Assembly: GCA_963575745.1 (NCBI GenBank) | Contig: CAUYUJ010000305.1 | Span: 62,001-115,635 of the forward strand | Origin: Prorocentrum cordatum | Taxonomy: Eukaryota | DNA: 53,635 nucleotides | Direction of reading: 5' to 3' | Shown: piece by piece, positions 16,031 to 51,807 of the stretch | Layout: every line of letters begins with the position of its first letter | How positions within the stretch are numbered: the first letter of the stretch is position 1 | The notes under the pieces: generated by a model | What the model was told of the DNA's origin: nothing | Databases searched by the model: none | Seen by the model: only the letters and a program-made list of their open reading frames with translations | Position numbers and translations under genes: made by a program

Positions 16031-16206
16031 TCTCCCGCGAGTCCAATAATGTACCTATACGACCGCGTTTCGGTTGATGAGGAGGTCGTTCTCGGGAAGG
16101 GGGGCCAACAGATGACCACTGCGATGGTTGTGACGGCGACGAGGCTGGGTCTGCGCTCGCGGGCAAGTGGCGATGCACGATGGGGATACTTTTCACGATG
16201 CATGCT

Positions 16207-17905
16207 GGACACCATGTGGACATTATTATCGGGACACCGTCGGGACAGAATCGGGACACCATCCGGGCACCATTGGGACACCACCGGGGCAACATCGGGA
16301 CACCATCGAAGCACTGTCGGGACACCATCATGGAACCATGTGGACACCATCGGGAGACCATCGGGACACCATGTGGACACTATCAGGGCACCATGTGGAC
16401 ACCCATCGGAACACCGTCGGGACAGCACGTGGACAACAGTGGGCACCATCGGGCAACATGTGGACACCATCGGAAAACCATGTGGACACCACTTGGACAT
16501 AATCGGGGCACAAGCAGGACATTATCGACACGCCATCGGGAAGAACACCTGAAGAGACTGCGAAGAAACTGGATGGTACAATCGGGACACCGTGTGGACA
16601 CCATGTGGCCACCACCCGGACACCATAAAGACACCCTTGGAACACCATCGGGGCAGCAGCGCGACACTATCGGAACATCATCCGGACACCACTGTGACAC
16701 AATCGGGGCACCCTGGTGGTACAATGTGGGCACCATCGGGACGAAATCGGAACACAATCCGGACACCATGTGGACACACTGTGGACACCATGTGGTCACC
16801 ATCGGGACACCCTCGGGGCACCATCGGAACACCATCGGAACAGCATCGGGACACCATCGAGACACCATCGGGACACCATCGGGACACCGTCGGGACACCA
16901 TCGAGACCCCATCGGGACCCCATGAGGACACCATCGGGGCACTGTCGGGACACCATGTGGACACCATTGGGACACAATGTGGACACCATGTGGACAACAT
17001 CAAAACATCATCGGCGCAGCATCGGGACACCATCGGAACACAATTCGGACACCATTGGGACACAACGGGGACACCACCTGGACACCACTGGGATACCATC
17101 GGGGCACCAATCTGGACACCAATCACCAGTCGGGAAAACACTGGGACACCAGCGGACACCATGGGGACACCATGGCGACACCATCGGAACACAATTCGGG
17201 CACAATCGGGACACCATCGGGGTACTGTGAGGACACCATGTGGACACCATTCGGACACCATGTGGACAACATCGGATCATCATCGGCGCATCATCGGGAC
17301 ACCATCGGGACGCCATTCGGACAGAATCGGGACACAACGGGGAACACCACTGGGACACCCCTGGGACACCATCGGGGCACCAATCGGGACACCTCTCACC
17401 AATCGGGAAGCCACCAGGACACCATCCACAATCAGGACACCATCGGGACACCATCGGGGCACCATGTGGACACCATCGGGACACCCATCGGGACACCATC
17501 GGGACCGCACGTGGACCACGTTTGGACACCATTGGGGCACTATCGGGACACCATGTGAACACCATTGAGATACAATTTGGACACCACCGGCACACCATCA
17601 GGTCGCCCTTGACCAAAATCGGGTCAGCAGCGGGACACTATCGGAACAGCATCGGGGTACCATTGGGACACCACGGGGACACAACTAGAACACCATCGGG
17701 GCACCATTCGCACACCACTGGGACACCATGTGAACACCACAAAGACACCATCGGGACACCACTGGGACACCCTCGGGGCACCAATCAGGACACCAATCAC
17801 CAGTCGGGACACCACTAGGACCCCATCAGGACACCATCGGAACACCATCGGGCCACCCATCGGGACACCACAGGACGTCATAGGACACCACGGTGGGACA
17901 CCCCC
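16207..17905 (+). repeat. Diverged 11-bp minisatellite (ggacaccatcg)n
   Basis: Directly visible tandem units over ~1.7 kb. Confidence 0.92.
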
Positions 17906-20019: not shown

Positions 20020-21935
20020 TTAGCCTGACGAAGGACCCAACCATGTGCAGGTGTGAATACCGCAGTTGACACTACCAATTTCGGTGGGGCTCCCTATAGG
20101 GCCACGAAACGTGTGAAGTGGATGGGCGTGCGGGACGCATGCGGGCGGCAGCACTGGGGCCTTCGGTGGAGCTGGAGCTCCCTATGGGGCCACGAAACGT
20201 GTGAGGGAGTTGACGAAATGGGTGTGGCTGACGCATGCGGGCGCGGGCACTGGGGCCTTCGGTGGAGCTCCCTATGGGACCACGAAACGTTTGAGGGGTG
20301 TGCCGAAATGGGTGTGGCTGACGCATGCGGGCGCGGGCACTGGGGCCTTCGGTGGAGCTCCCTATGGGGCCACGAAACGTGTGAGGGGTGTGCCGAAATG
20401 GGTGTGGTTGACGCATGCGGGCGCGGGCACTGGGGCCTTCGGTGGAGCTCCCTATGGGACCACGAAACGTGTTGAGGGGTGTGCCGAAATGGGTGTGGCT
20501 GACGCATGCGGGCGCGGGCACTGGGGCCTTCGGTGGAGCTCCCTATGGAGCCACGAAACGTGTGAGGGGTGTGCCGAAATGGGTGTGGCTGGCGCATGCG
20601 GGCGCGGGCACTGGGGCCTTCGGTGGAGCTCCCTATGGAGCCACGAAACGTGTGAGGGGTGTGCCGAAATGGGTGTGGGTGACGCATGCGGGCGCGGGCA
20701 CTGGGGCCTTCGGTGGAGCTCCCTATGGAGCCACGAAACGTGTGAGGGGTGTGCCGAAATGGGTGTGGCTGACGCATGCGGGCGCGGGCACTGGGGCCTT
20801 CGGTGGAGCTCCCTATGGAGCCACGAAACGTGTGAGGGGTGTGCCGAAATGGGTGTGGGTGACGCATGCGGGCGCGGGCACTGGGGCCTTCGGTGGAGCT
20901 CCCTATGGAGCCACGAAACGTGTGAGGGGTGTGCCGAAATGGGTGTGGGTGACGCATGCGGGCGCGGGCACTGGGGCCTTCGGTGGAGCTCCCTATGGAG
21001 CCACGAAACGTGTGAGGGGTGTGCCGAAATGGGTGTGGGTGACGCATGCGGGCGCGGGCACTGGGGCCTTCGGTGGAGCTCCCTATGGAGCCACGAAACG
21101 TGTGAGGGGTGTGCCGAAATGGGTGTGGGTGACGCATGCGGGCGCGGGCACTGGGGCCTTCGGTGGAGCTCCCTATGGAGCCACGAAACGTGTGAGGGGT
21201 GTGCCGAAATGGGTGTGGGTGACGCATGCGGGCGCGGGCACTGGGGCCTTCGGTGGAGCTCCCTATGGAGCCACGAAGCGTGTGAGGGGTGTGCCGAAAT
21301 GGGTGTGGGTGTGATGCGTGGCCCTGACTGGGCTTCGGTGGAGCTCCCTCTCGCACGAAACGTGTGAGGGGTGTGCCGACGCATGCGGTGGGGCCTTCGG
21401 TGGAGCTCCCTATGGAGCCACGAAACGTGTGAGGGGTGTGCCGAAATGGGTGTGGGTGACGCATGCGGGCGCGGGCACTGGGGCCTTCGGTGGAGCTCCC
21501 TATGGAGCCACGAAACGTGTGAGGGGTGTGCCGAAATGGGTGTGGGTGACGCATGCGGGCGCGGGCACTGGGGCCTTCGGTGGAGCTCCCTATGGAGCCA
21601 CGAAACGTGTGAGGGGTGTGCCGAAATGGGTGTGGGTGACGCATGCGGGCGCGGGCACTGGGGCCTTCGGTGGAGCTCCCTATGGAGCCACGAAACGTGT
21701 GAGGGGTGTGCCGAAATGGGTGTGGGTGACGCATGCGGGCGCGGGCACTGGGGCCTTCGGTGGAGCTCCCTATGGAGCCACGAAACGGTGTACTGGGTGG
21801 GTGAAGAGGAGAGAGGAGGAGAGGAGAGGAGAGGAGAGGAGAGGAGAGGAGAGGAGAGGAGAGGAGAGGAGAGGAGAGGAACGCGGGGCACCGTCTCTTC
21901 AAAACGAGGACCCAACACCACAGGATGGTTGGGAA
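20020..21935. mobile_element. Non-autonomous minisatellite-carrying element (Helentron/DINE-like architecture)
   Basis: Begins ttagcc; subterminal cccaaccat (20036-20044) is the inverse of atggttggg (21925-21933); terminal hairpin cccaac..gttggg-aa; contains a 90-bp array and (gagga)n. Confidence 0.55.
20080..21787 (+). repeat. 90-bp tandem array, ~19 nearly identical copies
   Basis: Unit ccacgaaacgtgtgaggggtgtgccgaaatgggtgtgggtgacgcatgcgggcgcgggcactggggccttcggtggagctccctatggag. Confidence 0.97.
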
Positions 21936-22588
21936 ATATTCGTTTCTCCGCGGCACCCGTCGCGCAACAACCACGACGGCTACGACTACGGCTACGAATA
22001 CGACCACGATACGACTACGGCTACAGCTACGACTGAGAGGAGGAGCCGACGATGAGGGTGAAGAGGAGCAGGAGCAGGAGGAGGAGGAGGAGGAGGAGGA
22101 GGAGGAGGAAGAGGGGGAGAAGGAAGAGGAGGGCTGGGGGAAGAGGAGCAGGAGGAGGAGGAGGAGGAAGAGCACGAGGAAGAGGAAGAGGAGGAAGCGG
22201 AGGAAAAGGAAGAGGAGGGGTGGAGGAGGAGAGGAGGAGGAGGAGGTCGGTCGGTCGGATCTGCAGAATGACCAAGTCGAAAGTAAAGTCGATTTCGGGC
22301 TGATCGCAGTGCGCATGAGGCTTCAATAGCCTCTCGTCGGAGAAAAAGAAAGGTATCCACCCTCGGGTGGCTTAAAATTGGGGACACCGTGGAAACAATG
22401 TGGAAGCTCTGCAACTCACAAGCAACTCCCAGGGGGGGCCGCGGAGGCGCCCAATAGGGCCGACACAAGACCAGAAGCCGACAAGGTAACCCGAGCCGGG
22501 CTCGAAGGGCAAAAACAAGTTTTTGCCATCTCAAGCCCGGCTCAGGCCCAGGCGCCTTCAAACGTCTCCGCGGGAATGGGGGGAGGGT

Positions 22589-32899: not shown

Positions 32900-33349
32900 C
32901 AGAAAGTCAGGGGGTATGTGCCCTGGAAACTCGAACTCACCGTACAGGCATCGGCGGGCCACGTCGACTTGCAAAACTCTTCGAGGCCCCAAACGGGCCC
33001 CGATGAGCCGAGACCCCGGACACTGGGACCCGCCCGTCATTACTGTTCCGTGGCGCTGGAATTTGGGGAGGGCGACGTGTTTTTTTTTTTTATGTGGTAT
33101 GACATCTCTTCGCAGCGTGGTTCTGTAGAAGTGTCATCTAACGTTCGCGCACATGCGAGCCAAACCACATCGAATTGTTAAACGATTCCCAATACACAAT
33201 TTTGAAATACGCTCGAATCTGGGAGATGGAGGATGATCGCATTTCGCGGGCGACTGCGGAGGAGGACATGTTGATAACCATGAACGTGTTCTGAGCGATG
33301 CACCTACCGAGGAAGTCGAGAACTAAGCTACTCTTGAGCTGTTCTTCCC

Positions 33350-34447
33350 TCAAGCGGTAAACGAGGAACTCGGGCTGAGCGTGGAGGAGGCCCAACGGTA
33401 GTCTGAAGCGTAAAGCTCTACGACTCTGTTGTAGATTGTGCGATTCCGATAAAACTGCTTCATCAAGCTTGCGGAGCCGGTGCCATGACCTGCTGCGCTT
33501 TCTGATGGGAATAACTTTCGAGTAAGATCCATGAGCGGGTCCGAATCTTCCATGCCCGCTTCGCGCTTCAGCATGTCTACCACCTGCTCTTGGATGTGCG
33601 CGGGGGGGCCCGACAATTTCCCCACGAAGTCGTATTCTTCTAGACGTCGGCCATCGCAAAATACGTGCTGTGGATCGAAATGGGCGTTGTAAAATCCGAC
33701 TGCGTCCACAAATCCGATGTACTTCGGGAGCAGCTCGACCACAGTCTTCTCAAACAATTCCACCTTCTTGCTTTCCGACATGTTGGTGACCTGGGGACCC
33801 AAGCAATCGATGCCCCCGTACTCCCAAGCGTCGCACTTTGACAACCAAGCGGACAGAAATCGTTCTGCAGGGTCGCGCAGGAATATTGCCATCTTCCAGC
33901 CGTTTGCTTTAGAGATGTTCTTCCTGAAATAACTTCTAATACGCTTATCTTTGGAATCAGAATTTGATGTCCAAAAGGGGTTGTCGTCATGTGGGTCGAA
34001 TCCGTATCCGTTTAGGGCGTTAAAGAGTTTGTTGAACTGCGTGCACGCGTTCTTCTCAATGTAGCAGAAGGCCATCTTCTTGCTGGGCACGATCAGCATT
34101 CGGTTGTCCCAGTGCGTCTTTCGGTTTGGGCCTTGAGGGCCTCTGAAGGGGAAGTCGTCGTGGCGAGTGGCAGGTGCCCATATTCTCGGGTGGCTCTGAT
34201 CCATAGCTAGAGACGTTGGTGACGGGTCGAAGATGGAAGAGTCGTACCGCTCGGGAACGTAGAAATCGTCGAAAACCTCGTCGAACGGACCGATCGAAGA
34301 GACCCTCAGGGATGTCGCCGCAACCGCGTGCGCGTGCAGCGCTGCAGTGGCCAGCACCACAGCTCCCCGCAGTAGCATGGCTAGCGGTGCAAGTGAAGGA
34401 GTGTAGAATACGTGTAAGACGGGCTGGGAGGGCATGTGCTGGGCCAT
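33350..34447 (-). CDS. Sulfotransferase (Sulfotransfer_2 / carbohydrate sulfotransferase-like), intronless retrogene with a signal peptide or anchor
   Basis: 5'-PSB-like FCYIEKNACT, 3'-PB RDPAERFLSAW, HFDPQ..C, YDFVGKL, LYASDY; hydrophobic MLLRGAVVLATAALHAHAVA. First ATG after the SL is at 34447, alternative at 34378; the ORF-track start at 34753 lies outside the retrocopy. Confidence 0.9.
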   Translation of the reverse strand: MAQHMPSQPVLHVFYTPSLAPLAMLLRGAVVLATAALHAHAVAATSLRVSSIGPFDEVFDDFYVPERYDSSIFDPSPTSLAMDQSHPRIWAPATRHDDFPFRGPQGPNRKTHWDNRMLIVPSKKMAFCYIEKNACTQFNKLFNALNGYGFDPHDDNPFWTSNSDSKDKRIRSYFRKNISKANGWKMAIFLRDPAERFLSAWLSKCDAWEYGGIDCLGPQVTNMSESKKVELFEKTVVELLPKYIGFVDAVGFYNAHFDPQHVFCDGRRLEEYDFVGKLSGPPAHIQEQVVDMLKREAGMEDSDPLMDLTRKLFPSESAAGHGTGSASLMKQFYRNRTIYNRVVELYASDYRWASSTLSPSSSFTA

Positions 34448-34455
34448 GCCGGCGC

Positions 34456-34476
34456 CTTGAGATAAATGGCTACGGA
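34456..34476 (-). other. Relict dinoflagellate spliced leader
   Basis: TCCGTAGCCATTTATCTCAAG vs consensus DCCGTAGCCATTTTGGCTCAAG. Confidence 0.9.
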
Positions 34477-35415
34477 ATTCGGGGAGGGCGACGTTGATCG
34501 GTGGTTCAAGGATGGGGTCCTGAGGGGCTGGGGTCCTAAAGACGAGGACAACTGGGGTATCGTTCGCCCAACCGGGGTACAGCCCATCCAACCAGGGCTT
34601 GGACCAACCTGCCCCCCGGGTGCGCGGACGTCGCCCTCTCCCTCCCTGAGGAGGGGGGGGCGGAGAGAGGGGCAAGGAAAGGGGTGGGGGGAGAGAGGGG
34701 CAACGATGGAGTGCGGGATCGGCCGCAAGATCCCCTCGCGAGAAAAACCCCACCCCGAGAACCCGCGCGCGAGGTGCACCCGAGGGGAGCCCCGGAGCAA
34801 CCGGAGCGCAGCAGCTCCTTCAACCGCCGCGGGAAATCACCGCCCAGGGCGCGGAGCGAAGAAACCCCGTGTACTCCAGATTTCGTAAAAAAAGGGAGGG
34901 GGTCTCATTTCGGGGGGGGGGGGGTCTCTTCCAGGCTATCTTCCAGGGCCTGGGGGGTCTGGGGACGATGTTCTGGAGGGTTCTCCCACGGGGGAGGTCT
35001 GAAATGGCTTGTCTTGGAGGGTCCAGACCCCCTCCCTTTTATTACGAAATATGGAGTACCCTGACGAGAAGCACGCGTTTTTTCTTGTGGCGCGACCCCA
35101 CTGTAGGGGGGGGGGGGCCTCGACCTGAGCTCGGCGAGGCGCCCCCGACCGCGAAGTCCGCACGGCCCTGGGCGGGGTGGAGCCATCGGACCCTCCTCGG
35201 CGAGCCACGGGCACTTGTGAAGGGCCCCCAGGACACACAAATAAATACACACAGAAAATTATCCCGGCAAAGCAACCTAACAGCGATGTGTAGGAGCATA
35301 TCTGGAAGCATTCCCCTTAAGATTCAGATGAGAATCCAGTTGTAGAATTGTGCTGTTCTCGCAGTCGTAGTCGCATTCGCGATGACAGTCGCAGTGGCAA
35401 CGGCAGTCACAGACA

Positions 35416-35630
35416 CAGCCTCAGCCTCAGCCTGCCTCAGCCTCAGCCTCAGCCTCAGCCTCAGCCTGCCTCAGCCTCAGCCTCAGCCTGCTTCAGCCTC
35501 AGCCTCAGTCTGCCTTCAGCCTCGGCCTCAGCCTCAGCCTGCCTCAGCCTCAGCCTGCATCAGCCTCAGCCTCAGCCTCAGCCTGCCTCAGCATCAGCCT
35601 GCCTCAGCCTCAGCCTCAGCCTGCCTCAGC
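35416..35630 (+). repeat. (CAGCCT)n microsatellite
   Basis: Directly visible. Confidence 0.93.
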
Positions 35631-36121
35631 ATTCAAAATGTGGCCCGGGAATGGAGTTCTGGGAACTCGAAGAACACGAAGTGGCCTACAGTTGGCTCCG
35701 GGCATTCAAAATCATGCCCAGGAATGGAGTTCTGGGAACTCGAAGACCACGAAGTGGCCTACAGTTGGCTCCGGGCATCCAAAATGTGGCCCGGGAATGG
35801 AGTTCTGGGAACTCGAAGACCACGAAGTGGCCTACAGTTGGCTCCGGGCATCCAAAATGTGGCCCGGGAATGGAGTTCTGGGAACTCGAAGAGCACGAAG
35901 TGGCCTACAGTTGGCTCCGGGCATTCAAAATGTGGCCCGGGAATGGAGTTCTGGGGACTCGAAGACCACGAAGTGGCCTACAGTTGGCTCCGGGCATTCA
36001 AAATGTGGCCCGGGAATGGAGTTCTGGGAAGTCGAAGAGCACGAAGTGGCCTACAGTTGGCTCCGGGCATTCAGAATGTGGCCCGGGAATGGAGTTCTGG
36101 GAGGTCGAAGAGCACGAAGTG
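35629..36121 (+). repeat. 73-bp tandem array, ~6.7 copies
   Basis: Unit gcattcaaaatgtggcccgggaatggagttctgggaactcgaagaccacgaagtggcctacagttggctccgg (e.g. starts at 35921 and 35994). Confidence 0.95.
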
Positions 36122-37860
36122 TGTGACTGTTGGCTTAAAACGACTTCTGCGGCACCCTGTCCGGCACCCGCCCAGACCCCCCTGTGGAGTCATCTGCTGC
36201 TCTCTTTTGACACCACTAGAAACCTATCAGAACAAGCTGTTAGGTAATAAAAAGATTCCCCATATTTTCGCATATTTTCTCGGTTTTTGTCTTCCCCACC
36301 ACTTCCCATATTTTCTTATATTTTCCTGGGAGTCGACGATTAATTGTGTCTGTGTGTTTTTTCCCTCCTGAAATTGGGAGCCCAGGCGTCGTCCTCCCCT
36401 TGGGCCCATTCCCAGGTGGCCTTCGGCTCGAAACCCGGGCCTCCCGCGGCCGCTCGCGACGCTCCGGGCACCCCCCGGGAGCGCTCCCGGTGACTCGCAG
36501 CTGCTGAGAGGCATCCCGGCATCCCGAGGATATGCCGCCGCCGAGCACCGACGAAAACCACCGACCGCCTCGAACCTCGAACCCGAAACGTTCCCCCCAT
36601 CGTGGCCCCCATCCTCCCCCCATCCCTGCCGTCGCTCGCACGTCCCTTTTCCTGTGCACTTTTGCCGGTGTCGTGCGTGCTTTTTGCTCGATGGCCCAGG
36701 ACGGTCCTCCGTGGTTCTCGCCGAGAAAAATGCGCACGTCCGAGCGATGCCAAGCCTCGCTGCCACTGGGAAAGGGGGTCGCACTCTCGCCGGCCCCCGC
36801 CGGCGGAGAACGGGCCAATGCCCAGCGCGCTCTCCGCCGGCGCCGACCCGGGCAACAGAACCAGCGGTGCGGGCTGTGCAGGTCTGCCTCCGCTCGAACT
36901 TGCTCCGACTGCCTTGCGCAGGGACTGCACTGCAGGCGGTGTGCACAGTGGTTTCCTTTGGGTCACGTGTTGAATCATATCTGCATGGCTTTGCACTACG
37001 GTTCTCCTCGCAAGACATATGCACATCATCTCTAGGTCTGGAATCCAAAATTGGTACTGCGTTCTTCTGGCGGACCCGTGGCAGCGATATACGCCAGAAT
37101 AGCACGCAACGCAACACACACACACACAACGAAGCGACAAGGCAAAGCAGACAAAACGACACAGGACACGCCCCTCGGGAGGAACCTCGGGAGGCACCGT
37201 CGGGAGATACCCTCGGAGGCACACAGGAGGCACCCTCGCAGCCCCACATAGAGGCCTCCTAGATGGGGTCCGAGTAGATGGGGTCGGAGGTTCGCGCCGA
37301 ATCGCCGATACATCGGCGACGCATCGGTGATGTATTGGCAATGCACCAGCGACGTATCGTCGACGTCGGCGATGCATCGGCCACGTCGACGTGAAACAAA
37401 TCGAACACCACCTCGAGCCGCATCGCCGATGCATCCGCGATGCGGAGCGATCCTTCGACCCCATATACTCGGACTACACATCAGAGGCCAAGACCACAGC
37501 CGCCCCTCAGGAGGCACCCATCGGAGGACCACAGCTTCTGCGTCGGCGGCCTGGCAGGGTGACTGCGCTGGCGAACGGAGCGAAACAGGGCAACGTTCAA
37601 CGAATTCCGCCACTATGCATAGAGGCCTCCTAGATGCAGTCCGAGTAGATGGGGTCGGAAGATCACACCGCATCGCCAACGCATCGCCGATGCATCGCCG
37701 ATTCATCGCCGATGCATCGGCAATGTCGGCGATGCATCGCCGACGTCGGCGTCGAGACCAAGCCGCGTCGGCGATGCATCGGCGAGGCGGCGCGATCCTC
37801 CGACCCCATCTACTCCGACACCCTCTAGGAGGCCTGGAATTCAGGAGAGGGGGGGGAGCA

Positions 37861-43102: not shown

Positions 43103-43244
43103 GCCGAGGTGTCTACAGTTAACCTTGCTGAGAATACTTCTGCCGCGTACACGCCTGGGGCACCGGTGCATACTGCCCTAGATATAGACTCCAGTGAATG
43201 TCAAGGCTGCTACGCTACCTACGTACCCTCTCTGCTGTCAAGCC

Positions 43245-44070
43245 CCCTGTGGCGTCGAGGAAATGCCACGCCTGCCACGCCCTGGGAGCCTGCAGCGCAC
43301 AGGGCCCCCACCCCCAGCGCACCCCCTGTGGCGTCGAGGAAATGCCACGCCTGCCACGCCCTGGGAGCTTGCAGCGCACCCCTCCGGTGTCGAGAATGTG
43401 CCACGCCTGCTGGGCCCCGTGACATTGGCGCGTATAGCGACCGCGGTGGGCCCCCACCCCCGGCGCACTCCCTGTGGCGTCGAGAAAATGCCACTCCTGC
43501 TAGGCCCTGCGACATTGGCGCGTGCAGAGACCGCGGTGGGCCCCCACCCCCAGCGCACCCCCTTGTGGCGTCGAGAAAGTGCCACGCCTGCTAGGCCCTG
43601 CGAAATTGGCGCGAAAGAGACCGCGGTGGGCCCCCACCCCCAGCGCAGCCCCTTTGGCGTCGAGGGAATGACACTCCTGCTAGGCCCTGCGACATTGGCG
43701 CGTGCAGAGACCGCGGTGACCCCCCCACCCCCAGCGCACCTCCTGCGGCGTCGAGGAAGTGCCACGCCTGCTAGGCCCTGCGACATTGGCGCGTATAGAG
43801 ACCGCGGTGGGCCCCCACCCCCAGCGCACCCCCTGTGGCGTCGAGAAAGTGCCACGCCTGGTGTCGAGAAAGTGCCACCCCTGCCACGCTCTCCGACCCT
43901 GGCACGCATAGAGACCGTGCTGAGGGAACACCCCCTGCGCACCCTCTCTGGTGTCGAGAAAGTGCCACCCCTGCCACGCTCTCCGACCCTGGCACGCATA
44001 GAGACCGCGCTGAGGGACCACCCCCTGCGCACCCTTTCTGGTGTCGAGGAAGTGCCACCCCTGCTACACT
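43245..44070 (+). repeat. ~90-bp tandem array unrelated to the 20-kb array, followed by (GCTGT)n (44100-44275) and a ccccac/gtgggg-aa terminal hairpin (44353-44373)
   Basis: ggcgtcgag motif at ~43477, 43567, 43656, 43747 and 43837. Confidence 0.9.
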
Positions 44071-44629
44071 CTGCCGTGCCGTGCCCTGCGCGCCAGCCCT
44101 GTGTGCTATGCTATGCTGTGCTGTGCTGTGCTGTGCTGCTGTGCGGTGAGCTGTGCTGTGCTGTGCCGTGCTGCGGTGAGCTGTGCTGTTCTGTGCTGTG
44201 CTGAGTTGAGCTGAGGTGAGCTGTGTTCAGCTGTGCCGTGCTGAGCTGAGCTGAGCTGTGCTGAGCAGTGCTGTGAGGAGGAGGAGGGGGAAGAGTGAGG
44301 TGAGTGTCGCGGGTGCGTCGCGGGTGCGGCGCGGCAGGGAAGAAAACAATAACCCCACGAAGCATGTGGGGAATTAGGTATCTCACACCTGCAGCAATAG
44401 CACATTACTTAGTTTTTAACTCTCAAAAATACAAATTGAGGCCGCTGCCTAAATCATGCAGGCTCGAGTCCGATGCTAAACAACAACGAGAACTCATACC
44501 TTTAGAAACCACAGCTCCTCCATGAGTGCCCCCTCCAGGGGGAGGGGAGGGCTGGTTTCAGATGCGGCCTCCAGCCGATCTGAGAAGCATTGCGTGTGGC
44601 GCGCGAGAGGCCCTCCATAATATGATGCT

Positions 44630-45687
44630 CAGCAATGAAGAGGCCGTCGCACAGGGATCTGCTGCAATAGATCCAAAGCCACCTGGTTCCAAGAAGTAGT
44701 AGTGCATAACATCATATCAATAGTCGACAACCTCTTGCGGATCCTCGACACCTCCATCGCGCCGATCTGGTTAAAGATGAAGTCCACCTGACGCTTGTAG
44801 GGGGGCAAACAAACCTACCTCGCGTTTGACCACCCTCGCTTCCAAAAGATACCAAGCGATGCCAAACTACGGCCTGTACTGGTCAGGCCGCTAGACGAGG
44901 AGGCGCGCGGTATGACTTGGTTTTCCCTGGAAGCGAAAGCGGGGTAGGTCATGCACGCTCTGAGCTTGGCCTCCGCCAGCCTGTGCGCGGTGAACATGGG
45001 CAGCAAGTTAAATATGCTGCAATACCCGGTTGAATGAAGCCACTGCACCTTCACGAGCCGTACGTAAACGTTTGGCGGCCTTGATCTGGGATTGCGTATG
45101 TATGGTTTCTCAATATTATCAAGCTCATCATGGGATAATGCGGAATCGATGCTGCACTTCTTGAATGATTCCAAATATTGACGATGCTGCTCTTCACTAC
45201 CGAGGCCCAAAGGAGCTTCAGAAACCGCACCTTGGTCGAGGTGCGTCTTGAACTCCTGGATCTGCTGCCATATCGAAACTCTGGCGATTGGCGGTGCGCC
45301 ACTCCTGCAGCTCATCCTTAGACATGCCGACGAGGTTGGAAGGCTCGGGGGCAGCACCTCCTGGACCTCCAGCATGCCATTCGCCATCGAGTACACCAGC
45401 AGGGGCAGGTGCACCACGTGGGCGCTCAGCAAGGGCACGCCCATCGTCGACATGCATTTCATCAGCGCTACCTTGATCACAATTCCCAGGGCCAGCAGCG
45501 CCAGCGCCTGGGGCAGGGCCACGCGCATCAGCAGCAGCGCGTCGTTCGCGGTCACGAAGCTCACGTTCGGCTTGCTCATCAGCCAATATTTGTCGTCGGG
45601 ATTCAGCAGGGTCGAATGCATCCACCTCCTCGTACGCAACACGATAGGCCGCAGCGGCTTGCTCCAACTGCCCAACAGCTTCTGCAT
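44630..45687 (-). pseudogene. Degenerate intronless coding fragment of unknown identity, starting at the (CCT)n that ends LINE-C
   Basis: Protein-like charged helical frame EAVGQLEQAAAAYRVAYEEVDAFDPAESRRQILADEQAERELRDRERR..., continuing through frameshifts to QEFKTHLDQG... and YLLEARVVKREVGLFAPYKRQVDFIF. Confidence 0.45.
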
Positions 45688-45849
45688 GAGGAGGAGGAGG
45701 AGGAGGAGGAGGAACTCGCACCGGGGGAAGGCTAAGAATGCGATGGCCTGCGCTCGAAACCTCAAGGGCGCGGTCCTGCCTGTCCAGGAAGGGCGACAGG
45801 AGGCGCGCCCAGGAGCACGGACAGGCCGGCGCGCCTCCGCACAACCTGC

Positions 45850-48800
45850 TGAAAACGGGCCTGTGCGATGGCAGTAACGGGTCGAGAGGCGACAGGCCGA
45901 GAGCGAATGGTATGGACGTGATGAAACACGCATCGACATACATCACAATCGAAATCAGGGCCTGGTCAGGCAGTGGGAAAAAGCTTATAAACCTGACGCC
46001 CAGACAAACCATCGGCGAGACAAAACTGGGCAGGGAGATGGGGCAGGAAGATAATAATACAGTCATGCCAAGGGCACTCGAGAACGTGTTTCAGATGGTC
46101 GGCCTCGGGGAGGCCACACATTGGGCAAGCTAGAGTGGCCGACCGAAAGCGTCCTGAGGTGCACCACGCATTGCACACTGTCTTGAAAAAAGACGACAGG
46201 ACTGAGGGCGGAACTTTTTGAGCGGCCCTCAGGAAGGCCACAATAAAACACTTGATACTCCAGGCAGACATGTGCGGGTCGCATTTTCTAGCACGGGCTA
46301 TATAACACAGGCGGTCACGTCTTGGCGGAGGCGTTGACGGAGAGCCAGCTCAGCCTTTTTTCTGGAGGGGGGAAACATATTGGTGCATACCAGGGATAGC
46401 AGTCATCACGTCATAGTTGTTAATCATGGCCTTCAAGATACTTACTTTCCACCAGGGGTGTTCAGTCCATGCATTGCAGCAGTCTTCGTCTTCTTCGAAG
46501 GCGCTCAGGTCGTTACGAATCTCAAAAAAAGTGGGCGAGTAGAACGCGGCACGGCGCATGGCCGCTCGACTGACGAGCGCAAGCGACCGTGCCTCAAGAG
46601 GAAGCCCGAGCTGTTTGAGGCCCATCATCATCTTTGCAGTAATAGCACTATTAGGGCCCATCGTAAGCTTCTGGGGCCCCGACCTCTCCAGCTTCAGGCA
46701 CCTCTGGGTAATTGGCACAAGCTGGCACAGAAAAGTTAGCACCGAGAAAGCGATCATGTTGTACTGCGCGATAGTTTTGGCGAGCCCAAACCCGGCCGTG
46801 AATAAGGTGGATGCGGCGGACGAACTTCTGGAGGGCGGGTTCCCAGGGCGCGTCGATACTCTCGGGGCCAAGACGAACCCCCAGGTATTTCCCATGAGCC
46901 TCGAACTGAAGACCAGGCACGTTCATCCCGAGGGCCCCCAGCGCGGCCAGGAAATCAGCCTGACTCATACCGTGCAGGACCACGACAGTTTTGTCCAGGT
47001 TGACGCACAATCCAAATCCAGGGCCAGCAAGGGCCCACGCGCTCATGCAAAGGAAGAAGGCTTTGACAATGTCTCCTGGCCCGAGGCCGACTTCGTCTGC
47101 AAAGGCTCCCAGGGAATGGACAGGACGCGGCAGCAGTAGGCAGATCCTGCGTAGCACTGGGTCCACGGCCAGCGCAAGGAGAGAGCCGCTGGCAGGACAT
47201 CCTTGCTTGATGCCGCGGGTGAGCCAATAACCTATGTCCCGATGCATACCACGATGCGAAATAGATACCCAACCCCCTCGATATAGACACTTCAAGGCTT
47301 CGATGAGGAAGGTGGGCACTCCCATGGTATCAAGCGTTGCGAACATAGCTTCGTGCAGCAGACTGGGAAACGCGGCGCGTACATCGTAGAATATGAGGCC
47401 GGCCTTTAAACAGTGTCGTTGCACATGCCAATGGAGCGCGCAATACTCGAGCTCCAGAATATTCTCGTTCATAATCCTCCCACCCACGAACCCCCTCTGC
47501 TGTTTGATGCACGTAGATTGACATATGGTACTCAGGGGCTTGTTGAGAGCTAGCGATATCAGCTTATTCGCGGCCTAGTAGCAGAGGGCTTGCGCATGCA
47601 GAGCTGCTCGTCCCCATCCTCTACCCCTTTGGCTAAAAATATACTATATCCATGGTTGAAGTCTCTGTGGCATTCGCCCTGCTCCAGAATATGTAGATAC
47701 AGACGATATAACGCCGACGTCCCCAGAGTCCCAGAGTTGCTCCGTCCGCTAGGCGGGATCCCGTCGGAGCCAGGGGCGCTGTCGTGAGCCTTACCCATCA
47801 TCTTGAAAAGCTCCTCTTCCTCCAGCCTCCACTGAATATTGCCAGGAATCTGGGGGGCATCTGGGAGCAGCTCGTACATTGCCGTGGGTTCAGCATCCAC
47901 GGCTCCGTGCACTTGCCCCCAGTGTCGGGCGAGTTCTTTCGCTCCTTCACGCGGGTCGAAAATTGGCGTCCCGAGCGGGCCCGCAATCGCCTGCAACGAA
48001 ATACTAGCTCCACGAGCTGTCCAGGCAGATCGGTAGGTGTATAACGTGTTGGTCTTTTGTTGTTTCCATGTTTGGGACATGTCTGGGCCATTCTGGACAA
48101 GCTCGATCTGGCCATCGATCTGCTGCCGCTTGAGCGAGGCCAGCAGGTGATGGAAACCGATAGAGTCCGAGAACCGACAGGACTCAACGTCAAAGAACTG
48201 CAGGAGCCTGGGCACGCCTTCACGGCACGCCTCAAGGCAGACTGAGACCCAGATCTTTCGGCCCGCATAGCAGCCAACGCCCGAGACACGTATTCTGGGA
48301 GCGAATGGGCCCCGCGCTGTTCCAAGATGCCCAATGCCTTCCTTGATGCCGCCTGGGTGCCCTCCCTCACTTCCTCCACCGCCTCCATGGGGTTCTCCGA
48401 GAGCGGGGCAGCCCCTTCCAGAATCTCGCCCACGACCTTCGGGAACAAAGGATGCTTGGTGACCCAGGACTTGACCGCGAGGATCCCGTCGGAGCACTTG
48501 GGGGCCAAAACTACATGCACAGGTACATGATCAGAAAGTGTGCTGGGGTCAGCAGGGCGCCCAAGGACGCCCAGGGATGGCGCGAATCGAGCAACACGCC
48601 AGGAGGGATACTCGTATAAATGCGATCCATACGAGCGAGCGACTTGATGGCCGTGCGGCCCTCGACAAATTCCCCCACCCTGTGGGTAAACTGCGGCTGC
48701 TCAACCTCTGTCAAGAACGGAAACACCTCGATAAAGTGCTTGGCCAGCCGGTGAGATGGATGAACCAAGCGGCCTGATGACTGATCGCTGCCTTCACCAG

Positions 48801-48935
48801 CAGCTGGCCTCCTGGATACACACTATATCGCGTTGTTGAACCAACTTGATAACAAACCTGATCTTTGCTTTGTGGGCGTGCTGGGGGGCGACGATGGCAC
48901 CGAGGAGCGAGCGGGCATTCCACGAGACAATTGAG
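45850..48935 (-). pseudogene. LINE-C ORF2 (APE with apparent internal deletion, RT, C-terminal CxxC..H..C), frameshifted
   Basis: IVSWNARSLL, DIVCIQE, RMDRIY, SDHVPV; SAPGSDGIP, FLAKG, YDVRAAFPSL, RGIKQGCPASG, AFADEV, VNLDKT, KYLGV; CPMCG..HLKHVLEC. Confidence 0.9.
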
Positions 48936-49409
48936 AATCGCTAAGCAGGCAGGAAAGGACGGCACTCAGCAGGCAGCGGTGGCCAACTGCCGCCATGGTG
49001 AGAAGATCCCGACGAAGAGGTGCTGGACGAAGAAGGAGGTAGAACTCGCCGATGATGTGCTGAAAGTACTCGAAGAAGTGGAGCTTGTTGAAGAGGCTGT
49101 TGCTCTCCTGCGTTGACGACGCCGCCGTCGAATTCGACCTGGTAGCGCGTCAACATCTCGATGGGGCCCGACAATGTCCTGGTCCGCCGTCGCCAGAGCG
49201 CCCGCGCTCGGCAGGGCGGCGCTGGCGCCCGCACAGCGCTGGACACCCAATCCAGAGACATGGCCAAGATCGACAGATGCTTCCCCTGCCTCAGGTGGTC
49301 GGTACCCTCTGCTGTCGGCTGCGCCCCGCAGCGCGGACAGTGAGCAGTGCGTGCCACCTGGGCTCTCAGCATGCACGTTGGCGAACGATCGAGATGGCGT
49401 GGCCGTCTC

Positions 49410-50428
49410 CTACAGCAAAATGCCGTCGACGGTGCTGGCGATGACTGCATCTGTGAAGCCAAGCTTCTTGAGCTCAACCGTGTTGGGCATGATGTCCATC
49501 TGCCCGCTGTCTGAACCCTTCACCTCGACTAGTTCGGCCGTCTCGTCACCAGATATCAACCAGAGCTTCCCGCGGAAGCCTTGGGCGCCGAGTTTGTATG
49601 AATCATTCCACTTGTTCGTGCTGCGCGCCACGTCCATCACATTGGACCAGAGTATGCCGAGCACGCGGTTGACCTTCCTGATCTCGGGCGGGGCGTCCAT
49701 GCGAATCTTCAGCTTGATGGTGGCTCGGTTGGTCGGGTCGTCCCATGTCACACCGAGGGTGCGGGCTCTGGTGAGGAAGTCCTTCGCGTTGGAATTCGAA
49801 TCGAAAATGATAATGTACGCGGACTGAAAGTTGTGAACCTTTGGCATTGCAGTGTCTCCGTCTGGCACGCGTCGTTTGATCAAGTCTGTCGCGTACTTAG
49901 TCATGACCGTGCCCATCATCGCACGTGGGAAACCAGCAATCCATATCTTGCAATTATTCGAGTCATTCCCTTGACTTGAGGACGACCCCGCATTCGACCC
50001 CGCATTCGAGGCCCTTGATGACGGTGTTTGAGAACGTAATGCAGCAAGTTCAGCTTTTGCCCTGGCCGTGTCATTCTTCACTTGCTCGATGGAGACTGTA
50101 ATGGCACGTTGCACCTCGGCATTGGCGGCTGCGACAGCTTCGGCATGGCTGGACTGAGCTTTGACCTCCAGGTTTGCAATGCGCTCATTCATGGCAGCGA
50201 GCTGGGTGTCGTGCTCCGCCAGCGAAGTCTTTAACTCCAAAGATATCTTCTTTAGTGGCTAATGCGGCTTGACCATGCTGGATGTTGGTGAGCATATCAA
50301 AGAGCCGTGACATGTCTGAGTTGCCATTCCCACCTTTGCCGTCTCCTTTTCTCCATGGTGCGCGGGAACTTGAGGTCGCGTCCATCAGAGTTCGCAGTCT
50401 CGGTGATCTCCATATCCTCAGACGCCAT
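49410..50428 (-). pseudogene. LINE-C ORF1 (coiled coil plus RRM-like region), with two frameshifts near the N terminus
   Basis: ATG at 50428 (MASEDMEITE..); heptad-like LAEHDTQLAAMNERIANLEVKA; then KIWIAGFP...AYIIIFDS..AKDFL; positioned directly upstream of the APE domain. Confidence 0.78.
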
Positions 50429-50603
50429 CTGTTGCACCGATGGGGCGAAAACAAATACTGCTCACCTGCGGGCGCAGGAGGCAGGCGGCCAGTGGGGCGG
50501 ACCACTGAGCGCAAGAAGGATGTCGAGCGCAAAGGCTCTGGCACTGCCGCGGACTAGCGGTATCCGTGAAGGCCAATGCGGGCTCAGCCCGCCAAAGCAG
50601 ACC

Positions 50604-50625
50604 CTTGAGCCAAAATGGCTACGGA
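50604..50625 (-). other. Complete dinoflagellate spliced leader (22/22)
   Basis: The reverse complement reads TCCGTAGCCATTTTGGCTCAAG. Confidence 0.97.
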
Positions 50626-51807
50626 AGGAGGAGGAAGAGGAGGAGGAGGAGGAGGAGGAGGACAAGGAGGAGGAAAAGGAGAAGGATAAGTAGGAGGAGG
50701 AGGAGGAGGAGGAGGAGGAGGAGGAGGAGGAGGAAAAGGCGGAGGAGGAGGAAGGAAACGGGCCCCTGGAGGCCCACGGGAGGCCCGCGGGAGATCCTGG
50801 GCGGCGGGAGGCTCCCCGCGCGGGCGCGCGCGCGCGCGGCGCGGCGAGGCGCGGCGCCGGCGGCCGCCTGGCAGGGGGCGCGGGAGCCGTCCCAAGGCGC
50901 GCGGCGGGGGCCGCGGCGGCCCCGCGGGCCCAGGCGCGCGCCCGCGGGCGGCGGCGGCCGCGAGCTGAAAGAGCCGCGGGCACCGAGGATCGCGAGGAGG
51001 GCGACGGCGGCAGCGGCGGAGGCGGCCGCGGCCGCGAGCACGGGCCCCTCGGGCGGCGGCGGCGCCGCCGCCGCCGCCGCGGAGCCTGCTGCTGCCCTTG
51101 AGGCGGAGAGCGCTGCTGTTGCCACCGAGGAAACCTGCTCCTTGCGGTCCGCCCCACTATGGTCCTGATCCTCCTCCTCCGCCTCCTCTTCCTCCTCCTC
51201 CTCGTCCTCCTCCTCCTCCTCCTCCTTCTCCTCCTCCTCCTCATCATCATCATCATTCTCCTTGTGCAGCCCTTCTACCTCCTCCACCGATTCGCAACCT
51301 TTCTCCTCAACCTCACCCCCCGTCCTCAGGCTGCTCCGCCTGTCCTTGTGCAATCATCGTTGCTTAGCCCGCTTGTTGCTGTTCCTTCCCCTTCCCCTTT
51401 CCCCTTCTCGTCACCCCTCTCCCGTTCCTCCCAATCTTTCGATGGCAACCCATGGGAGCCTCCCATGCCGTTTCGCTGTCCCTTGCGGATCGACGCCAAC
51501 CGACGCGAATCGACGCTGGTCGACGCAACATCGACGACAAACTGGCGCTAGAGTTGACGCTACATCGGCGCTGCCTCGCCGATTGCCGGACGCTAGCGCA
51601 CGCGGGTGAATTTTAAAGACGGGATTGCGAGGGTATGCGCGGCTCCTACGATTTGCTACCGAACTTTCCTCTCCGAGGAGGAGGGAGGAGGAGGAGGAGG
51701 AGGAGGAGGAGGAGGAGGAGGAGGAGGAGGAGGAGGAGGAGGAGGACGAGGAGGAGGATGAGGAGGAGGCGGGGAAGGGGGAGAAGGGGGAGGAGGGGAT
51801 AAGGAAG

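Follow-up and report, generated by a model that had tools for sequence, protein, structure and literature searches.

We analysed a 53,635-nucleotide (nt) stretch of Prorocentrum cordatum DNA (contig CAUYUJ010000305.1, positions 62,001 to 115,635; G+C content 59.6%), hereafter the window, and in it a long interspersed nuclear element (LINE) that lies on the minus strand and begins with an exact copy of the 22-nt dinoflagellate spliced leader (SL; DinoSL). This copy is probably a dead, 5′-complete, LINE-1 (L1)-like non-LTR (long terminal repeat) retrotransposon, whose template RNA was trans-spliced to the SL and copied to its first base. That the RNA of the element was matured by SL trans-splicing had been proposed in a previous interpretation made from the letters alone (the sequence-only reading). 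The core of this idea is supported by the SL-leader junction in other copies of the element, by the start of its first open reading frame (ORF1) in the leader, by the (CCT)n tracts that bracket the insert, and by a GG dinucleotide, which is not a splice donor, after the SL.

The sequence-only reading had placed an exact 22-nt DinoSL between a (CCT)n flank and the 5′ untranslated region (UTR) and ORF1 of the LINE, and this was borne out. With up to three mismatches allowed, the 21-nt SL core CCGTAGCCATTTTGGCTCAAG matches the window once (50604-50624, minus strand), and it matches none of 100 dinucleotide-preserving shuffles. The T at position 50625 completes the 22-nt DinoSL, and the sequence beyond the SL begins with base 50603. 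The bases that follow are GGTC, beginning with GG and not with the GU or GC donor of SL RNA genes. The AGs at positions 6-7 and 21-22 of the SL are the first AGs after the upstream tract. Tracts of (CCT)n, which in the same orientation and with at least four units make up only 2.0% of the window, lie on both sides of the SL and LINE, so that the two are bracketed as one insert. A second copy of the LINE was not found within the window.

Furthermore, the SL is found on other copies of the element. We compared the window with Logan contigs of one public sequencing run (run X1, whose kind was guessed to be DNA, with 0.25 of the sampled words present). At an identity cut-off of 85%, 300 contigs aligned to the window, 40 of them at least 99% alike; the comparison excludes the repeat stretches 45676-45722 and 50621-50761. 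Among the loose contig ends listed, one at 50599 (three contigs, agreement 0.96) reads, in the orientation of the element, CCC, the full SL, ACTGA and then the leader. In these contigs, too, the leader is joined to a complete SL, but by another 5-nt linker. An SL is therefore not confined to the window copy; the SL cap is a trait of the family, as seen in a few other copies. The SL thus does not come from a chimera limited to one copy, which is one of the outcomes that the sequence-only reading had named as refuting it. Further X1 contigs have 1-nt insertions at 50599 (four contigs), 50600 (one) and 50601 (one). Contigs of other copies also span the middle of the leader, where all those covering 50489 and 50513 differ from the window, and one contig joins the leader to ORF1 (50245-50464, 12 differences). 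Two other runs were less informative: X2 gave no contigs on the window, and X3 gave only GC-rich low-complexity pieces outside the LINE. A metagenome scan with a 21-nt word from the leader had no matches, and the SL-junction pattern matched viral contigs once (L001), in a locus related through the SL only. In an Rfam search of 50200-50800 at E ≤ 1, no ribozyme family was found, and the one match was a chance match to a small RNA. The fold of the leader is no more stable than that of shuffled sequence (z-score -1.2).

The start of ORF1 was located with a transcriptome-derived protein of 173 amino acids (P0002). This protein starts at the same methionine as ORF1 and matches it at 89-95% protein identity in three pieces in three frames, which together span both ORF1 frameshifts. 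Because P0002 shares the ORF1 methionine, the leader holds the true ORF1 start. In EukProt, P0002 is labelled as Pyramimonas sp. CCMP1952 (EP00959), a green-alga transcriptome, and its 89-95% identity suggests dinoflagellate contamination or mislabelling of the Pyramimonas data set. Other named relatives of ORF1 are from Prorocentrum cordatum, with 46-52% identity; with P0002 as the query, the sole match was P0002 itself.

The LINE has two ORFs, of which ORF2 encodes an apurinic/apyrimidinic endonuclease (APE), a reverse transcriptase (RT) and a CCHC-like motif. We mapped ORF2 using metagenomic homologues of 1100-1290 amino acids that carry EEP and RVT_1 domains (PF03372 and PF00078), and that match the RT domains of R2 and of L1 ORF2p in the PDB. 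Aligned to one such homologue, P0004, the APE/EEP endonuclease remnants lie N-terminal to the RT, and about 125 amino acids of the endonuclease are deleted between them. Three X1 contigs of other copies run on at 48807 into sequence coding for ..VCGDFNF, a GDFN-type endonuclease motif that is missing here, which confirms the deletion in the window copy. There are also two frameshifts in ORF1 and at least four in ORF2 (around 48586/48565, 48212/48209, 47574/47571 and 46813/46796). The copy is dead, yet complete at its 5′ end, and the description ‘full-length’ in the sequence-only reading thus holds for the 5′ end but not for the coding capacity. The same reading pointed out that the SL is intact although the ORFs are frameshifted. 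This is true but carries little weight: with ORF1 still 89-95% identical to a transcript-derived relative, a large fraction of copies of that age would be expected to keep 22 nt unmutated by chance alone, and we therefore dropped the idea that selection keeps the SL intact.

In structure, ORF1 resembles the ORF1 protein (ORF1p) of L1. A model predicted with AlphaFold (AF2; pLDDT 91.9), from a 60-sequence alignment taken from 185 representative relatives, has a long N-terminal helix, an RNA recognition motif (RRM) and a C-terminal beta-rich domain. When this model was compared with the PDB using Foldseek, the ten best matches were all human LINE-1 ORF1p (E about 3e-4), and the RRM over residues 99-191 has a Z of 9-10 (VIA). 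As modelled, ORF1 thus has the L1 ORF1p architecture of coiled coil, RRM and C-terminal domain. None of the 60 ORF1 relatives has a real match to a Pfam domain, including the L1 family. Scans with the ORF1 alignment gave 109 pattern matches in metagenomes and 8 in viral contigs, none of which was confirmed. We also searched 140 SL-bearing loci, mainly from SL scans (20 genome-contig loci and 119 viral-contig stretches), by tblastn with the window ORF1, RT and other ORF2 pieces and eight homologues, and found no matches. Similarly, five metagenome-assembled genomes (MAGs) with SL-bearing contigs had no match to P0004.

Table 1. Positions of the LINE, its flanks and a neighbouring retrogene in the window
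Feature	Position	Strand	Remarks
Upstream flank, imperfect (CCT)n	50626..50760	-	135 nt, 96% pyrimidine; AG absent over 140 nt
DinoSL	50604..50625	-	Exact 22 nt
Linker GGTC, SL to conserved leader	50600..50603	-	4 nt; differs among copies (ACTGA in 3 contigs; 1-nt insertions in others)
5′ UTR (leader)	50429..50603	-	175 nt; run X1 contigs reach a very high summed depth over the first 50-100 nt
ORF1, L1 ORF1p type	49410..50428	-	ATG 50428-50426; frameshifts near 50348/50328 and 50240/50230
ORF2, APE-type endonuclease, N-terminal remnant (..SWNARSLL..IVCIQEA)	48806..48937	-	Aligns to P0004 residues 1-42
ORF2, endonuclease C-terminal part (..SDHVPV)	48510..48805	-	P0004 residues 169 onward; after internal deletion of about 125 amino acids at about 48806
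ORF2, RT domain	46813..47574	-	Pfam RVT_1, E 3.3e-10
ORF2, C-terminal region, CCHC-like motif (CPMCG..H..C)	46023..46796	-	Homologue mapping
3′ UTR	45714..46022	-	Ends ..GGTGCGAGTT (..GCGAGTT), without poly(A)
Downstream (CCT)n	45688..45713	-	26 nt; target-site duplication or element's own simple-repeat tail
Sulfotransferase processed retrogene, single exon	33061..34494	-	Sulfotransfer_2, E 5e-17; about 11 kb from LINE, same strand

The sulfotransferase retrogene offers a view of how SL-capped RNAs are retro-copied in this genome. It has a worn SL that starts at 34476 (21 nt, with three changes) and ends 9 nt before the ATG at 34446, and an A12 tail at 33091-33080. Target-site duplications (TSDs) of 18 nt at 34494-34477 and 33078-33061, identical at 17 of 18 positions, exactly flank the unit from SL to A-tail; the 18-nt repeat has two matches in the window and none in shuffles. 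The combination of SL relict, A12 tail and 18-nt TSD indicates that SL-capped RNAs are retro-copied to their 5′ ends, in the manner of L1, in the host genome. At the 5′ junction of the retrogene, TCC overlaps the target, as it does where the SL of the LINE meets (CCT)n. Taken together, a LINE with its own SL and a same-strand retrogene with SL, A-tail and TSD suggest that target-primed reverse transcription of the LINE type extends as far as the capped 5′ end.

The rest of the window is gene-poor, and a Pfam search of its 125 other ORFs matched only the sulfotransferase and, through low-complexity sequence, CDC45. It is dense with tandem arrays whose units are 11 nt, 90 nt (18 copies, some 100% identical), 73 nt, 10 nt and about 90 nt (for example at 16199-17800, 20056-21943, 35556-36212 and 43211-44289). 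Trinucleotide repeats are common, and (CCT)n/(AGG)n tracts of at least four units make up 3.3% of the window.

In the mechanism that we propose, the LINE RNA would receive the 22-nt DinoSL by trans-splicing, as host mRNAs do. Target-primed reverse transcription would then run to the first base of the SL, and the cDNA would be joined inside a (CCT)n tract, with the 5′ join possibly made via the TCC that is common to the start of the SL and (CCT)n. If transcription later ran through the insert, the old SL could be the site at which a new SL is added, for its two AGs stand directly behind a 135-nt AG-free pyrimidine tract. Since the flank is such a long AG-free pyrimidine tract, read-through transcripts could be re-spliced at the old SL and, to judge from this anatomy, it is plausible that an inherited SL is re-used as an acceptor in a promoter-free cycle. 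In published retrogene relicts it is mainly the internal AG of the SL (between GTAG and CC) that is re-used as the acceptor, and a 15-nt relict is left (PMC5585692, PMC12014239, PMC7245778; here and below, papers cited by PMC number are cited for the portions of their text that were available). The SL relict form is CCATTTTGGCTCAAG.

Several observations weigh against the idea that the element is normally SL-capped and copied whole. An explicit SL in other copies is seen in only one of the loose ends listed (three contigs), with 3 nt visible upstream of it. The 4-5 nt that link SL and leader vary more than the sequence around them, which would not be expected from simple inheritance. The LINE copy has no stacked relict SL, though, to judge from published retrogenes, re-splicing leaves one as a rule (PMC12014239, PMC5585692). 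At the 3′ end, this one copy is without poly(A) and passes straight into (CCT)n at 45714, where a TSD of up to 26 nt is indistinguishable from plain microsatellite identity. Finally, the first 50-100 nt after the SL (50520-50603) are far deeper in run X1 than the body of the element: the summed contig depth, which is not a copy number, is 288-588 at 50568-50601, compared with 19-27 at 50489 and 50513 and 5-39 in bins of the element body, and contigs identical to the window (0 differences) have a depth of 2.5-4.4. A piece made of SL and leader may thus also exist apart from the LINE. One reading of the excess is a shared 5′ module, conserved next to the SL in many subfamilies whose bodies have diverged beyond the 85% cut-off; the excess could also come from a separate SL-leader repeat or from a captured host 5′ UTR. 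Judged by eye, the X1 loose ends at 50572 and 50519 resemble diverged versions of this leader, not foreign sequence.

Both the excess depth next to the SL (against 19-27 in the middle of the leader and 5-39 in the body) and the variable linker would fit a one-time capture, in which the SL and the start of the leader came from an unrelated SL-capped host mRNA or an abundant SL-leader repeat, were fused to a 5′-truncated LINE when the RT switched templates or through 5′ transduction, and were then amplified as a chimera. The SL would in that case be uninformative on how the LINE normally makes its 5′ end. However, the loose ends at 50572 and 50519 resemble the same leader, contigs of other copies span the central part of the leader and continue into ORF1, the ORF1 start codon in the leader agrees with P0002, and the SL stands on at least two linker variants; we regard capture as quite improbable. 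It is possible, if somewhat unlikely, that the active sources are instead SL-less in the DNA, with a promoter of their own and, immediately before the leader, an AG acceptor, so that each transcript is trans-spliced afresh, the daughters are not re-used and there is no promoter-free cycle. Such master copies would suit the single, unstacked SL of the window copy and of the one other copy visible far enough upstream, as well as the fact that the window copy is dead, and distinct linkers could mark distinct masters. On the other hand, no SL-less copy was seen (though the data could hardly have shown one), the polypyrimidine and AG anatomy of the insert would permit re-splicing, and dinoflagellate retrogenes are known to be re-expressed after insertion (PMC5585692, PMC7245778). 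Between re-use of the terminal AG and fresh splicing of SL-less masters, the data fit both equally.

Far less probable than either, and largely refuted, is the idea that the SL belongs to an SL RNA gene or SL-like array into which the LINE inserted site-specifically, as SLACS, CZAR and NeSL do. The summed depth of the SL-proximal segment is high, and SL-like genes that lack a donor exist in Fugacium (PMC6616646), both of which this idea would accommodate. But the SL is whole and uninterrupted; it is followed by GG, where SL genes have GU or GC (PMC6616646) and the SL loci that we retrieved have GTAC; (CCT)n lies on both sides, with no remainder of an SL gene past the 3′ end; the endonuclease is of the APE type and not restriction-like; and the ORF1 ATG lies 175 nt downstream in the same unit. 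Neither a fixed site in SL RNA genes nor a restriction-like endonuclease, the marks of SL-gene-specific LINEs, was found in the LINE copy. We accordingly rejected an SL RNA gene, as there is no splice donor after the SL, and SLACS-like site specificity, given the wrong flanks and the wrong type of endonuclease. We also rejected an origin as a cDNA contaminant or an assembly chimera, because the copy is degenerate and lies among repeats, and because paralogous contigs have the same junction.

A retrotransposon with a trans-spliced, fully copied 5′ end, as we prefer for the window copy, could be part of a wider scheme, which is tentative and, taken as a whole, unlikely. The family would run an SL-based, promoter-free cycle, in which its RNA is cut from read-through transcripts by trans-splicing and every 5′-complete daughter carries an SL. 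Insertion into (CCT)n in the sense orientation, perhaps aided by microhomology to the TCC of the SL or by a simple-repeat 3′ tail, would rebuild the 3′ splice site. The SL and first 50-100 nt would form a portable 5′ hallmark of several families, and an L1-like LINE would be the engine of SL-tagged retrogenes. If this were true, the SL and leader module would be the trans-splicing counterpart of the trypanosomatid Pr77 promoter/ribozyme module, and an L1-like LINE could be named as the engine behind the mass of dinoflagellate SL-tagged retrogenes. Dinoflagellate genomes carry these retrogenes in large numbers, and as the source of the reverse transcriptase that makes them a 2018 review favoured LTR elements (PMC6050394). 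The locus poses the question of whether the 5′ end of a LINE can be set by trans-splicing, with the acceptor carried along, and not by an internal promoter (as in L1 and Pr77) or a ribozyme (as in R2 and L1Tc), in genomes that have little promoter-based control and long read-through transcription. Even if only the more modest interpretation of the window copy is right, SL relicts upstream of RT genes should be annotated as the 5′-complete ends of LINEs and not as host retrogenes.

DNA-encoded SLs also turned up outside the window. Giant-virus MAG contigs of 16-25% GC from IMG/VR contain dozens of exact DinoSL copies (L001 and L022-L135; for example GVMAG-M-3300023179-82 and GVMAG-M-3300023174-52), each time directly after a recurring AT-rich motif and before short UTRs and AT-rich ORFs. 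From their sequence, these look like promoters of the virus, so positioned that its transcripts would start with a host leader encoded in the DNA; among the papers listed in one literature search, none dealt with DinoSL cassettes of giant viruses. A further 20 loci with an exact DinoSL (L002-L021) lie in bacterial or archaeal MAG contigs and are probably dinoflagellate contaminants. Several of them are SL RNA genes, with the SL followed by GTAC, and one (L013) has an SL with two stacked relicts. Of 14 GC-rich SL loci that we examined (10 from these MAGs and 4 from IMG/VR), 4 have a simple repeat immediately 5′ of the SL. All four are in MAG contigs, and their repeats (GT-rich, (TCA)n, (AG)n and (GACA)n) echo the (CCT)n before the SL of the LINE.

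The closest parallel to the 5′ end of the LINE is found in dinoflagellate retrogenes tagged with the DinoSL, which Slamovits and Keeling reportedly described in 2008 as ‘recycled processed cDNAs’ (cited in PMC6050394). In both, a DNA-encoded SL stands at the 5′ end of a retro-copied unit, and the sulfotransferase retrogene of the window is a textbook case. Unlike these retrogenes, the LINE is autonomous in design (ORF1p, endonuclease and RT), has a complete and unstacked SL, is without poly(A) and lies in a microsatellite. Song et al. (2017, PMC5585692) proposed the relict SL as the source of a TTT(T/G) promoter motif and of an AG acceptor, and found the Gene Ontology (GO) term ‘RNA-dependent DNA replication’ enriched among SL-relict genes. 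Given this enrichment, SL-tagged units that encode RT are implicit in their lists, at least as far as the available text goes. An autonomous LINE family with an SL as its genomic 5′ end was not described in the literature that we searched, which did not cover supplements.

In trypanosomatids, the other major group that uses trans-splicing, LINEs make their 5′ ends differently. SLACS and CZAR of trypanosomatids, and NeSL-1 of C. elegans, are specific for SL RNA genes. Their RNA starts with SL sequence, as that of the LINE described here probably does. SLACS is transcribed from +1 of the SL gene that it interrupts (PMC3447711). However, SLACS, CZAR and NeSL insert inside the SL exon, use the promoter of the SL gene and have a restriction-like endonuclease, whereas here the unit contains a whole SL, is flanked by (CCT)n and encodes an APE-type enzyme. 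The L1Tc/ingi elements, with Pr77 and an HDV (hepatitis delta virus)-like ribozyme, and R2, with its 5′ ribozyme, also have a defined 5′ end amid long read-through transcription. Pr77 is a short 5′ module present in many families of elements and wider than any one of them, which recalls the over-represented SL-proximal leader, but L1Tc/ingi use it as a promoter and ribozyme and make SL-less RNAs. The 5′ end of the LINE is the SL itself, with no ribozyme family found at 50200-50800. As in microsatellite-targeting non-LTR retrotransposons (PMC4640811), a single microsatellite, in the same orientation on both sides, encloses the insert. Most published target-specific lineages, however, have a restriction-like endonuclease or are of the R1 type, and for the LINE the flanks of only one copy are visible.

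In its proteins, the LINE is closest to human LINE-1, with which it shares an ORF1p made of coiled coil, RRM and C-terminal domain, as predicted by modelling, and an ORF2 with APE endonuclease, RT and a Cys/His motif. The TSD and A-tail that are the hallmarks of human LINE-1 retrocopies are present in the neighbouring sulfotransferase retrogene. In contrast to human LINE-1, which has an internal promoter in its 5′ UTR and a poly(A) tail, the LINE has a trans-spliced leader at its 5′ end, and the window copy has no A-tail. The likeness comes from fold and domain layout, not from RT phylogeny, and ORF1 has no Pfam match to the L1 family at the sequence level. The LINE has the build of an L1 and operates in the manner of a dinoflagellate retrogene.

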